DNA from: Bdellovibrionales bacterium
GTDB lineage: Bacteria; Bdellovibrionota; Bdellovibrionia; Bdellovibrionales; UBA1609
Assembly: GCA_050246815.1 (NCBI GenBank)
Contig: JBFWVI010000038.1
Coordinates: forward strand, 1 to 30,647
Direction of reading: 5' to 3'
Length of the DNA: 30,647 nt
Shown: positions 2,642 through 30,647 of the stretch, piece by piece
Position numbering within the stretch: position 1 is the first letter of the stretch
How the letters are laid out: each line of letters begins with the position of its first letter
Position numbers and translations under genes: made by a program
Notes under the pieces: generated by a model
What the model saw: the letters and a program-made list of their open reading frames with translations, nothing else
What the model was told of the DNA's origin: nothing
Database searches by the model: none

Positions 2642-3529
2642 CTAGTACTTAAACTTCTTCCAGCGCTTGTGCAGCCACATCCATTGCTCTGGACACATCC
2701 TAACATATTGTTCCAAATGATCCGTATAAACTTGTGTCATTCGAGCCAGACTTTCATCATGATCGGGGCCTTCCACATATTCAATGGCCGGCTCGCAGAA
2801 CACATCCGTACGCCCATCCTCACGGCGCAAAGTGTAGGCCGGAACCACCGCCGCACCTGAGCGGTGAGCCATGACCGCCAATCCCAATGCCGTGCCAGTC
2901 TCTCTCCCAAAAAACATGGTCTTGACCCCAATCGGAGGCCCCGTGAACTGATCCAGAACAAAAATCACAATCTCGTTTTTTTTCAGTGCTTTTAAAATTC
3001 CATAGGAACTGTTGCGTGGTGGGATAAATTTCATGCCCACCTTTTCGCGCATTCCAAACCACGCATCATTCAGCCACTCAGTCTTAAAAGTTTTCGAAAT
3101 CAGGTGCATAGGCCAACCCAACAAAGCCAAGCCAGCACTGGCCAAATCACCATTACCCAAATGCAAGGTCAAAAGCAAAACTCCTTTACCCTGCAGCCGT
3201 GCCTTTTCAACGTGCTCGCGGCCATAAAAACGAAATTGATCGATATCTTCAGCCCCTAAAAACGGAAGGCGCGCGTACTCCACCACGTTGAAGCAAAAAT
3301 TGGCCATTGCTCGTCGCCCGATCTTGACTCTTTCCGAATAGGACATTTGTGGAAAGGCAATTCCCAAATTGTCGATGACCACCTGGCGACGAATGCGCAA
3401 TAGATCAAACCAGAAAATGCCCATCCCCCAAGCCAAGGCCTTTTGCATTTTCCAAGGCATGGCTTGAATCAGCCAAGCCAACCCCCTAGCGGGTGACAGC
3501 AGCCAGCGCATGATCCAAGGCCTCCTCAT
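2642..3529 (-). CDS. lpxL: Lipid A late acyltransferase (LpxL/HtrB family)
   Basis: HLGNGD (HxGNWE-like), FVLDQ, FFG, PEQWMWLHKRWK motifs; directly downstream of lpxK. Start may be 3511. Confidence 0.85.
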   Translation of the reverse strand: MRRPWIMRWLLSPARGLAWLIQAMPWKMQKALAWGMGIFWFDLLRIRRQVVIDNLGIAFPQMSYSERVKIGRRAMANFCFNVVEYARLPFLGAEDIDQFRFYGREHVEKARLQGKGVLLLTLHLGNGDLASAGLALLGWPMHLISKTFKTEWLNDAWFGMREKVGMKFIPPRNSSYGILKALKKNEIVIFVLDQFTGPPIGVKTMFFGRETGTALGLAVMAHRSGAAVVPAYTLRREDGRTDVFCEPAIEYVEGPDHDESLARMTQVYTDHLEQYVRMCPEQWMWLHKRWKKFKY

Positions 3530-4520
3530 TTTTCACCCATTTGATCTGCAACCCTGCGACTGCGGTACGATTGAGCAAGGGCGAATTAAGCGAGCGCCAT
3601 TTGACGGCATCTTTTTCGGTGATCACCACGCCCTGACCGGGCTTAAGAGATTTTTCGATCAAAGCCAAATCCTCAACGCTATAATCATGATGATCCGCAA
3701 ACCAAGATTCACCATGGACACTCAACTTAAGTTCTTCGCGTAAAAGTTTAGCAAAAGTTTCGGGCCTGGCGATCCCTGCGCAGGCCCTCCAGCTGTTTAC
3801 CCTCTCAAATTCGCCTGAGCCTGGCGTGAGTGGCTCGATTTTTTTTGCCTGATAAGCCGCCTCGATTAAAATTTGGCTGGATCGCAATTCTTGGCCAAAC
3901 CACTCCCGCCATTTGTTCAAATGGGCGACTGGGGCCAGATTCACCTTATTCAAAACGACAACTTGCGCACGTTTGAGACCCTGGCGGTCTTCACGCCCCA
4001 GCCCCCAAGGTAAAGGCCTTAAGCTTTCAAGCGATTGGCAAGCATCTAGCACCACAACATCCAACTGACGTCGCAAGGAGCGATGCTGAAAAGCATCGTC
4101 CGCCACGATCACATCCACCTTTTCATGGCGCAAAACAAGCTTGGCCACATCCACCCGTTTTGCGCCAACATAAACAGGCACATCACCATAATGGCTTTTG
4201 ATCAAAACAGGCTCATCACCAAAACGAGACACCGCATCGCTCGCCCTTAAATCCACCGCCGACACCACGCACCCACGACGTCCATAACCACGACTGATCA
4301 CCGCGGGTCGAAGACCTTGGGCTTTTAATTTTTGCAACAGCGCCATAGTCACCGGGGTTTTACCTGCCCCACCGACGGTCAAATTGCCCACGCTGATCAC
4401 AGGTCGATCCACTGCATGAGATTCAAAATAACCCTGATCATACAAAAGATTTCGGCAAGCCATCACTTTGCCGTAAAACAATCCGAAAGGCTTAAGCCAA
4501 GGACGCGAGTCCTTCAACAT
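3486..4520 (-). CDS. lpxK: Tetraacyldisaccharide 4'-kinase
   Basis: SVGNLTVGGAGKTP P-loop, SRGYG, GDEP, DDAFQH, FADHH, TEKDAVK. Confidence 0.96.
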   Translation of the reverse strand: MLKDSRPWLKPFGLFYGKVMACRNLLYDQGYFESHAVDRPVISVGNLTVGGAGKTPVTMALLQKLKAQGLRPAVISRGYGRRGCVVSAVDLRASDAVSRFGDEPVLIKSHYGDVPVYVGAKRVDVAKLVLRHEKVDVIVADDAFQHRSLRRQLDVVVLDACQSLESLRPLPWGLGREDRQGLKRAQVVVLNKVNLAPVAHLNKWREWFGQELRSSQILIEAAYQAKKIEPLTPGSGEFERVNSWRACAGIARPETFAKLLREELKLSVHGESWFADHHDYSVEDLALIEKSLKPGQGVVITEKDAVKWRSLNSPLLNRTAVAGLQIKWVKNEEALDHALAAVTR

Positions 4521-25335: not shown

Positions 25336-26652
<1,317 letters not shown>

Positions 26653-26714: not shown

Positions 26715-26790
26715 GACCCGCTAGCTCAGTTGGTAGAGCACTTCACTTTTAATGAAGGGGTCGATGGTTCAAGTCCATCGCGGGTCACCA
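26715..26790 (+). tRNA. tRNA-Lys (anticodon UUU)
   Basis: Hand-folded cloverleaf: acceptor GACCCGC/GCGGGTC, D stem GCTC/GAGC, anticodon stem CTTCA/TGAAG with loop CT-TTT-AA, T arm GATGG-TTCAAGT-CCATC, encoded CCA. Confidence 0.97.
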
Positions 26791-26817: not shown

Positions 26818-26893
26818 GTCCCCATCGTCTAGAGGCCTAGGACAATTCCCTTTCACGGAATAGACCGGGGTTCGAATCCCCGTGGGGACGCCA
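26818..26893 (+). tRNA. tRNA-Glu (anticodon UUC), probable integration site
   Basis: Acceptor GTCCCCA/TGGGGAC, anticodon stem ATTCC/GGAAT with loop CT-TTC-AC, T arm CGGGG-TTCGAAT-CCCCG, discriminator G, encoded CCA. Confidence 0.97.
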
Positions 26894-28465
26894 ATTTTGA
26901 TTTTCACTCATTTCAGCAATAGTAGCGAACGGTTTTCTCAAACCGTATCGCAGATTTACGCCATCTAATATCGGGTTCCAACAGACCCTTTTCAAGATTT
27001 CCAGTCGTTCTGTCAGACTTCCTTTTTTCCATAATTCTTTCGCTTCTTTAGCGAGTTCCAATACAGTTTCAGCAGTTACCTTCCAAGCATCAGAAATTTT
27101 GTACTGAGCATCCTCCAAAAGTTTTGTGAAATGCTTTTGGTCGGCTTCGATTTGCTCAAGCTTCACGGCATAGTCTTCGTTGGTAATGATTTTATCTGCC
27201 AGCAGATCCAAATACTTCAACCGTCGCTCGTGCAAAGTGGTGAGCGCCTTTCTATATTCATTCATTTCAGCAGCGATAGCCTCTTTAGCTATTTTGTCTG
27301 TTTCATTTAATGCCTCAGCTATTTCTTTTGCTCTCTGCTCAGAGATACTGATTTTATCAAGTGCTGGCTCAAAAGCCTTCATTAGCTCCTCCTCAGTTGT
27401 GTACATGCCCTTCAAAGATTCATGGACCCCTCTAGAGTTGGAGCATCTGTAATACTTGAACTCCTTTTTCTCCCCAGTTTCCTTAATCTTCTTTTTGGTA
27501 TGTTCACATACTATCTGTAATCCACACTCTGGATGACCACATCTTATCCAACCGCCAGAAAAAATGCCTTTTTCTACTGATGCTCTTCTGTGGACCCTCT
27601 TGTGACCAAACCTCTCATCAACAGCATCAAGTAATGGCTTTGGAATGATAAGCTCGTGCTTGCCCTTATATTCTATTCCCTGCCAATCAAATGACCCCCG
27701 ATAAAACTTATTCTTTAAACGAGCCTCAATGCCGTGCTTGGAATAGGTATTTATTTTTGATGGCAAAATAAATCCGTCTTCAATAATCTGCTCGCGGATC
27801 GCAGCCACTGAATAACCCTGAGCACATAACTCAAATTCACGGATGACTTGTTTAACGGCTCTTTCATTGGGGTTTTTAACGATTGTTGAGCCACGTTTCT
27901 TGGCTCTGCCATTTTCATCAATTGGAAAACTATGGATATAGCCAAGCGGAGCATGGTTATTTGGAAACCAACCCTCCTCAGCCTTTCTTCTCATAGCATC
28001 GACAACCTTAACTCGAAGTCTTCTAGAAAAGTCTTTACTGCCTACAGCTTGGTAATCTCTGGCCGTAAAATCAGATTCAGGGCTATCTTTGTGGAGGATT
28101 TTTCGTTCCTGAACGTAGTGAAGGACAATCCTGTCCTGAAGAACCAATTTTTCATTATATTCATTGTCCGTTAAATTTCGCGCTTCGCGATCCCCCATAT
28201 AAAAGAGGATGTGCCGAGCACCATTCTTCAATGCCCACGAGATAGCATGATGGTACTTCTTGCGTGAATCTGAATCCTTTGCTGACTCATATATTTTGAA
28301 GACCTCTATTAGATCCAATCCCTTTTCTTTAATCCATTCTGCCACACGCTCAGCCTGAACAGTGTGGGACAACCCATCTACTTGCTTTTTTGTACTTACC
28401 CGTAGAATTGCAATCGCTTTGTTAGAAGCGCCAATCCACTCATTTTTATCATTTGAATATTTCAT
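26837..28465 (-). CDS. Large serine recombinase (integrase)
   Basis: Resolvase domain LRVSTKKQ (Ser24), ESAK, DREARN; recombinase domain APLGY and LKNKFYRG...GKHELII; zinc ribbon CGHPECG...YYRC; coiled coil. GAGGT RBS before ATG 28465. The last 57 nt overlap tRNA-Glu antisense. Confidence 0.95.
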   Translation of the reverse strand: MKYSNDKNEWIGASNKAIAILRVSTKKQVDGLSHTVQAERVAEWIKEKGLDLIEVFKIYESAKDSDSRKKYHHAISWALKNGARHILFYMGDREARNLTDNEYNEKLVLQDRIVLHYVQERKILHKDSPESDFTARDYQAVGSKDFSRRLRVKVVDAMRRKAEEGWFPNNHAPLGYIHSFPIDENGRAKKRGSTIVKNPNERAVKQVIREFELCAQGYSVAAIREQIIEDGFILPSKINTYSKHGIEARLKNKFYRGSFDWQGIEYKGKHELIIPKPLLDAVDERFGHKRVHRRASVEKGIFSGGWIRCGHPECGLQIVCEHTKKKIKETGEKKEFKYYRCSNSRGVHESLKGMYTTEEELMKAFEPALDKISISEQRAKEIAEALNETDKIAKEAIAAEMNEYRKALTTLHERRLKYLDLLADKIITNEDYAVKLEQIEADQKHFTKLLEDAQYKISDAWKVTAETVLELAKEAKELWKKGSLTERLEILKRVCWNPILDGVNLRYGLRKPFATIAEMSENQNWRPHGDSNPGLFRERELS

Positions 28466-28530
28466 TTTATACCTCTCTATATTTTAAATTTAAATTTGTC
28501 GAATACATGTGAGTTCCAATCCCCTAGGAC

Positions 28531-28920
28531 CTAGCTAGCTTTCAGTTTGATTGAGTGAAGCAATGCAAACAGCTCAGTTAGGTTTTTGAAGTCAGATGGA
28601 CTCAGGTCATCAGCTTTACCATTAGCCTCTGTGACGCTCGCAGGAGCCACCTGATGGGTATGAACGGCTGACTGCTCAACATAGCTGTAAAGAAAAGGGT
28701 CACCTCTCTTACCACTACCTGTTCTGTTCACTAAATTATTCTCCAAGCAATACCGAACAACTTTAACTTTGTACTGCTTGCGACCACTGACCTTTTCGAG
28801 CAGATCAAACTCGCTCATAGGTTTTGGTGAACTTTTGACTGTTGATAGTATCCGCTCCATCAACGAAGAAAATTGCTGTGGAGGGATTCCTTGGATTCCT
28901 CCGATAACTGTTTTGGACAT
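28531..28920 (-). CDS. Small hypothetical protein, winged-helix-like; candidate accessory or directionality factor of the recombinase
   Basis: ATG 28920 with AGGA upstream (the track starts at TTG 28947). A helix-helix-helix then LVNRTGSGKRGDPFLY wing-like pattern. Co-oriented with the integrase and ends 65 nt before it. Confidence 0.65.
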   Translation of the reverse strand: MSKTVIGGIQGIPPQQFSSLMERILSTVKSSPKPMSEFDLLEKVSGRKQYKVKVVRYCLENNLVNRTGSGKRGDPFLYSYVEQSAVHTHQVAPASVTEANGKADDLSPSDFKNLTELFALLHSIKLKAS

Positions 28921-29384
28921 AAAAGATCCTATACAAGCTTTATCCAAAACCGTTTGCTATGGTTCCTTTGGGCTTATTGTAGGCTTCCATCCTTTTGTTA
29001 TCGGATTTAAGCGGCTATTTAATTTTTTCTATAGCCAATGATACTAAATCCAAATGTGCTTGTGAAGTACTGCTGATGAAAATCGGAAATATTTTTTGCG
29101 AAACTAATTTTTGTAAAATCGCGCTACTGTTCAAAAGTTCGACGAAAATATTTTTAGAAAAAATATCGAAAGTACTGGATTCGATTTTTTGAAAATGATA
29201 CCCCTATAAGGGAAGTGATAGAGCATTCTCTCGTGACCTCACTCTAAACAATTCCACACAATCAAACCAAGATCTCAAGATGAGGCATTCGTCCGTCTTA
29301 GGATCAAACTATAACTAAAAAGCAGTTTTCAAACGCGATGGGCGCGTATGGGCACCGCTATACCTAAAACCTGAGGAGGTTTCT

Positions 29385-29855
29385 ATGTCAGTATCTTTGC
29401 AATTTAAACAGAAGACTTTAATGGGCCTTGTGAGTCTCATTAACGAAGAGCTTCAATCTAGGCATGAGTTCAGCATTGAATTCATTATTACAGATGAAGC
29501 ATTAATATTCGAGAATGGGTTTATCGAATTCAAATTCGATAAAGAAGAAATTGTTGAAGCATCATTATATCATTTGCCAACTTTTCACTTAAGCCTTGCT
29601 CTTTCCATAGCTCAAGCGTTTGGAAGAATAAATATACCGATGCTAAGCCAACTGTTTTTGATAAATCAAACAACAACAGGCTCTAAACAGGTAGTTATCG
29701 TCACGCACGAACTTCACAACATATTTTTCTGTGAATCCGGAAATATATTTATCCGCGCATGCGCTCTAGATAACAGACATCTGAAATCAAGCAAAACCGC
29801 AGCTCTCTATCTAAAGTACGAACAATGCGAGCCAATAAACAAGCTGGCGATTTAA
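29385..29855 (+). CDS. Hypothetical protein (156 aa)
   Basis: Strong GAGGAGG RBS 6 nt before the ATG; no family recognised with confidence. Confidence 0.65.
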   Translation: MSVSLQFKQKTLMGLVSLINEELQSRHEFSIEFIITDEALIFENGFIEFKFDKEEIVEASLYHLPTFHLSLALSIAQAFGRINIPMLSQLFLINQTTTGSKQVVIVTHELHNIFFCESGNIFIRACALDNRHLKSSKTAALYLKYEQCEPINKLAI

Positions 29856-30028
29856 AAACAAGAAAGGAGAAGCAAATGGATACCTCTTGAAGCCTACCCC
29901 AAAAACATATCTGGATTGACTTATGGGAACATACCTAAGAAGTAGTATTCAAATGACATGGATACCTCCCTTTACTCCCTTTATATCCTTATATGCTACC
30001 CACATACTATGCGTTCTATTCCTTCTAC

Positions 30029-30066
30029 AGCTTGAGCAATGGAGCTTGAGCAATGGAGCTTAAGCA
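30029..30066 (+). repeat. Tandem 14-bp direct repeat AGCTTGAGCAATGG x2 plus a partial third copy (AGCTTAAGCA)
   Basis: Read directly at 30029-30042, 30043-30056 and 30057-30066. Confidence 0.9.
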
Positions 30067-30096
30067 TAACAATAAATTAAATGGCAATTATGCCGA

Positions 30097-30555
30097 ATGG
30101 AGTTTTATATGATTAATAGTAAAAGTGAAAATGATGAAAAATATAAGAATAGAGATATGGCTTTAGAGACAAACATTCTCAAAAGGCTAAACGGAATCGA
30201 GCTTCAGCTACACAGCTTTACAGTGCTAGATGATGCACCTGATAGCCCTTTGTGGAATTTAGTAAGACGCTTATACAGAAGCAAAATAACCAGCACAAAA
30301 ATTATGGGAATGGTTCTGAATTATGCCCTTACTACTGGTCAATCTGTCTTTACTCTCTCGATGTCTATTGTTGCAGCCATGATAAGGGAAGATGGCAATT
30401 TGGACCTGCAAAAACCGAGCGATGCAACCCTTAGAAAATTCTTTGTGAAAGCAAAGAGCTCACTCTTAAAGGAACTTTTTCCTTTTCAAGAGGCTAGCGA
30501 GGGCCATAGAGCAAGGGCAGGTCTGGAGTTGCCCCGTTTCAGTGGACGGGTTTAA
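30097..30555 (+). pseudogene. Hypothetical protein interrupted at about 30523 by an IS3-family insertion
   Basis: The terminal residues (LELPRFSGRV*) are read from the IS inverted repeat starting at 30524. Confidence 0.7.
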
Positions 30556-30647
30556 GTCTCGGATTTAACCAGTCCGAGACCAATACTCTTGCTCATAGTC
30601 CGCCGGCGATAAATAGTCTAGTGCCGAGTGACGTCGAGACGGATTAT
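30524..30647 (-). mobile_element. Right end (IRR) of an IS3-family insertion sequence
   Basis: Terminus TGGAGTTGCCCCGTTTCAGTGGAC has the IS3-family TG end with TGGAC at positions 20-24; the transposase C-terminus ends just inside it. Confidence 0.88.
30565..30647 (-). CDS. IS3-family transposase OrfB, C-terminal fragment
   Basis: Not in the ORF track; translated by hand as ...NPSRRHSALDYLSPADYEQEYWSRTG*, matching the IS3 integrase-core tail YNxxRxHSxLxYxSP. Confidence 0.9.
   Translation of the reverse strand, partial: NPSRRHSALDYLSPADYEQEYWSRTG

Follow-up and report, generated by a model that had tools for sequence, protein, structure and literature searches.

An integrase gene that runs without a stop into the tRNA gene it targets raises the question of whether the overlap has a function, and whether insertion of the element changes the protein that the gene makes. 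The locus studied here lies in a window of 30,647 nucleotides, which is the whole of contig C38 in a 3.4-Mb, 149-contig assembly of a Bdellovibrionales bacterium. The integrase gene (26837..28465, minus strand) overlaps an intact tRNA-Glu(ttc) gene (26818..26893, plus strand), which is the host half of attL and the sole tRNA-Glu among the 42 tRNA genes called in the assembly. ORF and tRNA calls bear out what the first-pass annotation had read at this locus: a 542-aa ORF (28465 to 26837) that ends in a tRNA-antisense tail, WRPHGDSNPGLFRERELS, made up of 18 codons (26893 to 26840) and a TAG stop (26837..26893 in all, minus strand). The first tail codon, TGG (Trp), is the reverse complement of the CCA end of tRNA-Glu, and the stop at 26837-26839 falls on tRNA positions 20-22.

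The ORF encodes a large serine integrase in its integrated-state form. Pfam matches cover a Resolvase domain (PF00239, residues 17-165, E = 3.8e-8) and a Recombinase domain (PF07508, residues 205-285, E = 1e-6). The sequence R22-V23-S24 is present, with R22 and S24 kept in at least 90% of the family alignment, and the zinc-ribbon residues C309, C314, C341 and H348 are invariant in the family. The domain order runs from the serine catalytic domain through the Recombinase domain to a zinc-ribbon domain with an inserted coiled coil, modeled as two long helices (376-423 and 429-456). A fold search matched the SPbeta, Bxb1, phiC31 and LI integrases, the best being the SPbeta integrase (E = 1e-17). 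In the model of the integrated form, residues 531-542 have pLDDT values below 50.

To the left of tRNA-Glu is host DNA with purA (25360..26652, plus strand) and tRNA-Lys(ttt) (26715..26790, plus strand). The order purA, tRNA-Lys, tRNA-Glu is common to relatives, in which the CCA end is followed either by unrelated DNA or by the same integrase end. To the right, GC content goes from ~0.52 to ~0.38-0.42, and this low-GC left arm of the element (26894..30523) holds the integrase gene, a 138-aa ORF (ORF138) and ORFs at 29385-29855 and 30097-30555; apart from the integrase, none of the element ORFs tested has a Pfam match. The contig breaks in the end of a repeated insertion-sequence-like element (30524..30647), which we take to be IS3-like and which breaks several contigs (the window at 30524-30647, C17:1-127, the end of C32, C87:1-126 and C44:3487). 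Contig C17 begins with the other end type of this repeat. No matching target duplication was found in the insertion-sequence flanks at the C38 and C17 breaks, which suggests rearrangement between repeat copies. Read depth over the element contig (window 26400-30550) was 14.9 compared with 28-31 over the host flank in run X1, and 7.7 compared with 13.2 in run X2; depth does not equal the share of cells, and the half depth possibly reflects a mixed population with empty sites.

The overlap could simply be a chance read-through with the att site outside the gene, and the tRNA-derived tail varies in length among relatives, as that reading would have it. We found 164 homologs, the named ones from Bdellovibrionota; within the order, matches occur in 78 of 384 genomes. 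A first set of 68 loci was assembled from 60 of the 103 listed places and 8 earlier loci (L033 was dropped as a duplicate of L030, and L057 is uncounted). The integrase ORF overlaps the 3' end of a tRNA or tmRNA gene in 52 of these, and the Trp codon sits exactly on CCA in 51 of the 52, with tRNA-Glu (14), Leu (12), Ser (8), Asp (7), Arg (2), Ala (2) and Asn (1) and tmRNA (5) as targets; the remaining loci comprise contig edges, broken ORFs, and element-type or other tails. A second set of 85 loci (the best 80 of 119 metagenome loci plus 5 viral ones, with 50 distinct closed C-termini) repeats the frame in 34 of 36 overlaps and adds Val, Met and Gln as targets, although a few of its loci repeat elements of the first set. 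Over both sets the targets comprise ten kinds of tRNA/tmRNA. Since a random overlap would place CCA in this frame about one time in three, the overlap is not a matter of chance; P values overstate the case, as the family loci are kin and not independent and the motifs took shape with the first set already in view. The reading frame into the tRNA is, as the annotation had asked, conserved in relatives, and on sequence grounds the integrase feature is real and family-wide. Far-end copies of the tRNA core also continue the integrase frame with a family motif, and the junctions on C17 and in a related genome described below contradict an att site outside the gene; we therefore regard chance read-through as extremely improbable.

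The tRNA-derived tail itself fared differently. The annotation had asked whether such tails are conserved; across relatives it measures anywhere from 4 to 49 aa, and the DSN within it is the T-loop read backwards, so that it is filler and no conserved functional tail. Tail classes, which rest on the 120 of 164 homologs listed, comprise 63 tRNA-type, 39 other and 7 short tails, with 11 homologs lacking the anchor. The element motif W-x6-[FLY]-R-[TNKI] is carried by 23 of these 120, and proteins with the element tail occur naturally, an example being the inner one of the tandem copies that follow tRNA-Ser at L104. Five IMG/VR contigs (31-47 kb, L193-L197) carry distant members of the family with 36-40% identity, one of them at tRNA-Val; these came from an alignment search, a search of the viral contigs with the single integrase protein having given no match. 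Some family members may ride on proviruses.

For the other end of the element, contig C17 is the likely location. A 12-bp block made up of the last 10 nt of tRNA-Glu plus 2 (26884..26895) is shared with C17:4141-4152, where the integrase frame continues from the inner junction (C17:4142) as WRPLALRLRNECFAFVA followed by a stop. A second copy of the block (11+1 nt) ends near C17:5400, and this outer junction (C17:5391) continues as WRPQVRQFRTACEELAASRVPT and a stop; beyond it, GC is back at host level. The 9-nt tRNA core has 21 copies in the genome. Two of them, at C17:4142 and C17:5391, are followed by family-type tails and sit in DNA of low GC that is homologous to the element or borders on it. 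A further candidate, C20:32909-32929, which matches the tRNA end at 20 of 21 positions, lies within a gene of host GC and was rejected. C38 and C17 are unjoined in the assembly, and we infer their connection from the fact that both break at ends of the same repeat. The listed loose ends of contigs from four sequencing runs held no excised junction or circle.

A genome of the same family (G006, on its contig C2) contains a contiguous element of 15.4 kb with an integrase that is 93% identical and is broken by a frameshift and an insertion. Its left part aligns with C38 (82.7% identity, 2430 nt) and its right part with C17:2708-4174 (79.2% identity, 1473 nt). The right junction shares the 9-nt tRNA core, after which the integrase frame gives WRPLALKLRNDCFAYVA and a stop. 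The element also has a small resolvase, and a 1295-aa STAND-type NTPase gene lies beside a SIR2-like gene (L021:10800-15378), likely anti-phage cargo. Near the far end on C17, an ORF of 351 aa (2650-3705, minus strand), partly shared with G006, has no Pfam match and by eye looks like a homing-endonuclease-type protein. The stretch between C17:4142 and 5399 (L112) is an integrase-less cassette of 1.25 kb bounded by two att cores; it holds one 380-aa gene without a Pfam match, together with 11 codons left from the end of an earlier integrase gene, and has the look of an older element that has shrunk and now sits behind the present one.

The block at 26884-26895 is shared by both ends and is the probable place of the crossover; at any position within it, recombination would exchange everything after WRP between the integrated and excised forms. 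It is very probable that the att site lies inside the integrase gene and that excision swaps the tail, as the annotation had proposed: the core shared with the far end is within the gene, and the C17 core continues in frame to a different C-terminus. None of the sequence findings that it had named as contradicting it turned up; the att site inside the gene and the change of tail stand, whereas the tail that is conserved is the one encoded by the element. Across the family, same-orientation 6-nt cores at far ends carry the tail motif (loosely defined) in 22 of 235 cases compared with 1 of 188 in the opposite orientation; a strict motif keeps 20 of the 22, two of them from the genome under study. 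With a stricter motif fixed beforehand, the second set gave 4 of 50 compared with 0 of 66. Element sizes measured from these far-end cores are about 6-20 kb.

The conserved part of the element tail is tied to how the site is read. When element arms of relatives are aligned on CCA, the T-loop motif GTTCRA of the tRNA recurs 5 bp further out; mean identity is 0.53 at a shift of 5, compared with 0.13-0.31 at other shifts. With the protein motif left unused, the shifted motif was found at 16 of 232 same-orientation cores and 0 of 187 opposite ones (5 of 50 and 0 of 66 in the second set). Of the two far ends on C17, the outer is exact, and the inner is degenerate at shift 5 (TTCCTGAG) with GTTC at shift 6. 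A 5-bp offset of the zinc-domain motif separates attP from attB in large serine integrases, as described in the available part of PMC3783163, and the offset is 4 bp in SPbeta according to the part of PMC11722253 at hand. The tRNA-Glu T-loop GTTCGAAT (26870..26877, plus strand) is accordingly labeled here as a candidate binding motif of the zinc-ribbon domain in attB. Arg codons in the tail motif end in a purine in 20 of 20 cases compared with a 60% background; given this bias and the T-loop repeat, DSN in the tRNA tail and FRT in the element tail are one DNA motif in two frames, and the FRT in the middle of the element tail is largely explained by DNA constraint. We consider it probable, with good confidence from these alignments, that the family reads the T-loop with its zinc-ribbon domain. 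Identity blocks at att sites extend 6-12 nt into the tRNA across loci, and the shortest would place the crossover inside the last 6 nt of the tRNA or just beyond. If the T-loop occupies attB positions ~12-19, the crossover would come to lie ~5-6 nt inward of the CCA end, in agreement with the shortest blocks of 6 nt.

The element tail itself ends ~50 nt from CCA, beyond the DNA motif. Among 43 distinct element tails, 20 are 17 aa long, 22 end in Ala and 19 end in a hydrophobic residue followed by Ala. Of 1720 long ORFs of the host, 8.0% and 3.3%, respectively, have ends of these two kinds, as does 1 of 47 tRNA tails; the Ala-ending share of element tails is about six-fold above the host background, with varied Ala and stop codons. 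The other 21 of the 43 have a different last residue, and Ala-Ala closes just 6 of the 34 element tails that are no longer than 21 aa. The second set has 6 element tails, 3 of them with Ala at the end; 3 of the 6 had already been seen, and among the new three 1 ends in Ala. A subclass of tails (P0019, P0085, P0088, P0096, P0100 and P0102) has H-G-G after the shared motif and no stop at 17 residues. The host has clpX, and its tmRNA tag is GNTEHALAA. In E. coli, GFP-FKLVA is degraded by ClpXP like GFP-YALAA, and no ClpXP signal is stronger than a terminal Ala-Ala preceded by an aromatic residue or Leu, according to the portion of PMC10862746 available. The end of the present element tail, FAFVA, resembles the FKLVA-type ends, and the composition of these tails suggests that the element tail is likely a ClpXP degradation tag.

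A candidate for the control of direction is encoded beside the integrase. ORF138 (28531..28947, minus strand) lies directly upstream of the integrase gene and has a conserved C-terminal helix with the approximate pattern LxxxEFxxVVExFxxL (28534-28653, minus strand), which recurs in the upstream ORFs of loci L023-L068. The helix is found at 27 of 56 loci compared with 2.5% of host ORF ends (the pattern was set after inspection) and at 37 of 70 loci of the second set, and it is joined to differing N-terminal parts across loci. Complex prediction with the last 40 residues of ORF138 and integrase residues 300-526 scored 0.74, compared with 0.13 for the best of three controls; the score mark is reached by 116 of 157 solved pairs and 2 of 215 mismatched pairs, and the score may reflect likeness to solved integrase-RDF structures. 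At least 93% of contacts are the same between runs, and the partner has pLDDT values of at least 68. The predicted site (integrase residues 372-389, 463-494 and 510-512) is the base of the coiled coil, and its contacts center on the conserved L471, A475, L478 and W479. In SPbeta an essential helix of the RDF packs at the coiled-coil base, as described in the available text of PMC11722253. An atlas search of ORF138 gave only unnamed or helix-turn-helix leads (0.87-0.90). From the predicted complex, ORF138 is rather likely to be a recombination directionality factor. Since a separate factor of this kind is likely to exist, the tail need not set direction.

The evidence on the tail bears on several explanations of why it is swapped. 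The tails could be exchanged while both forms of the protein behave alike, with the element tail kept mainly as arm DNA that the integrase binds. The Arg codon bias, at tail positions 8-9, is a DNA-level constraint of the type that this explanation calls for; half of the element tails lack a terminal Ala; both tails are predicted to be disordered, and the last 28 residues of the SPbeta integrase are disordered by cryo-EM in the available account (PMC11722253). The lack of an ordered tail in either model suits a degron or an inert end alike. A pure DNA arm leaves unaccounted for both the length of 17 residues in 20 of 43 tails and the excess of Ala ends, which are outside the DNA motif and written with varied Ala and stop codons, and we judge it a minority explanation, at perhaps a quarter of the weight. 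A switch of activity or direction like that reported for Mx8 is another reading: the element tail might fold onto the enzyme and either be required for full activity on attP x attB or block the directionality factor, leaving the inserted form weaker or biased toward excision. Tail positions 4, 5, 8, 12 and 13 are repeatedly hydrophobic, and the placement of att in the gene parallels that of Mx8 (cited in the part of PMC4383910 available). Against a folded tail, it is unpacked in the model of P0006, a protein in the element-tail form (residues 526-536, pLDDT below 50; a weak point, the alignment being mostly of tRNA tails). Two specific versions found no support: the tail does not resemble the ORF138 helix (best score -0.07, within the range of shuffled sequences, -0.15 ± 0.26), and it is no more amphipathic than tRNA tails (0.29 compared with 0.33). 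A switch of activity or direction seems improbable to us.

Control might also act on the RNA. The last 57 nt of the integrase mRNA are complementary to tRNA-Glu and the two genes are transcribed head-on, so that in the integrated state the message could be silenced or cut, and that of the circle would escape; the peptide tails would then be by-products. This geometry is directly in the sequence, and no terminator turned up in a simple scan of the stretch from the end of the gene to the tRNA, though its promoter and terminator counts equal those of shuffled sequence and are at chance level. Such control would leave the Ala-ending tails unexplained, and as the main explanation it is quite improbable; it can coexist with a degron. 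For degron-based control of the integrase, the makeup of the element tails tips the balance slightly in favor and makes it the likeliest function, and the account of tail swap and degron as a whole is, to our minds, likewise somewhat better than an even bet.

In that account of tail swap and degron, the att site of the integrase would be the last ~10 bases of tRNA-Glu, within the end of its own coding sequence. The enzyme would read the universal T-loop with its zinc-ribbon domain and probably also the acceptor end near the crossover, and reading these features would let the family move between tRNAs and tmRNA. As inserted, the element encodes an integrase with the 18 tRNA-antisense residues at its C-terminus; the circle left by excision would encode one ending in WRPLALRLRNECFAFVA, the likely ClpXP tag. 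The upstream helix is predicted to bind the coiled-coil base and license excision, so that the untagged, stable integrase would excise the element together with this factor. Integrase made from the circle would be short-lived, which would delay re-insertion in the donor and tie insertion in a new host to its protease load.

Several known systems resemble parts of this arrangement. Insertion of an SSV-type element splits the integrase gene into two large fragments; here the crossover would lie about 15 codons before the gene end at the Glu site, and all integrase domains remain intact. By sequence the present integrase has the layout of the myxophage Mx8 enzyme, with att in the gene and a C-terminus changed by insertion, in a serine rather than a tyrosine recombinase. 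On insertion, Mx8 IntP reportedly loses about 110 residues and its activity, a finding ascribed to Tojo et al. in 1996; the present enzyme would exchange about 14 residues and retain every domain. To our knowledge, canonical large serine integrases have their att sites outside the gene; those of LI/A118, SPbeta (SprA), Bxb1 and phiC31 share with the present enzyme the domain order, the fold, the 5-bp shift and a helix partner, which is here predicted. The Mx8 and SSV integrases extend across attP, as stated in the part of PMC4383910 available. In the integration-dependent immunity of mycobacteriophage BPs and phages of clusters G, N and P, as the available part of a review has it (PMC9262239), attP lies in the repressor gene, and the integrase is tagged whether or not the phage is integrated. 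In the present element the core is within the integrase gene, it is the integrase that would be switched, and Ala-ending tails are enriched.

A close parallel is DsiB, the ssrA-specific integrase of Dehalococcoides, a serine recombinase of ~540 aa. The 3' part of its gene and attL overlap in every case (McMurdie et al. 2011, PMC3146451, in the portion available), and the present integrase gene has the same overlap. The DsiB stop codon is supplied by the antisense strand of the target RNA gene or by the neighboring island; islands occur in tandem and carry a six-gene module that includes DsiA, RecF-like, ParB and Mom proteins, and a role in regulation was put forward as speculation (PMC3146451, same portion). 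DsiB is found at tmRNA only, whereas the present element is at tRNA-Glu and its relatives are at Ser, Leu, Asp, Arg, Ala, Asn, Val, Met and Gln tRNA genes and at tmRNA. Compared by description, the available DsiB text defines no element tail, degron, T-loop motif or helix-type factor. According to the available part of the 2014 Islander paper, no serine integrase is known to have a tRNA gene as its target. Control of these enzymes is commonly attributed to DNA sites together with a separate factor. The main text of PMC10083194, as far as available, does not mention tRNA or tmRNA, and the family is also absent from the passages of PMC12884075 at hand. In the literature covered, largely main texts outside subscription journals, no tRNA-targeting serine integrase with swapped tails was found.

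The broadest form of the proposal, that widespread serine integrases read T-loop plus CCA, encode their own target in their last codons, lose a ClpXP tag on insertion and adjoin a one-helix directionality factor, is plausible as a whole, at somewhat less than even chances. The residues after the last Trp tell the target: WRP and WRS point mostly to Glu, WRR mostly to Ser or Asp, WC mostly to Leu and WWR mostly to tmRNA. For annotators, proteins in the databases mostly carry the inserted-state tail, and cloning an integrase as annotated may give the wrong form. A family that targets many tRNA genes and tmRNA through the T-loop would supply integrases whose target sites occur naturally in almost every bacterium. 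A degron tail swap would be a new and easily tested layer of control that answers a question posed by DsiB and open since 2011 and, if true, would make the integrase its own state-sensing stability switch.
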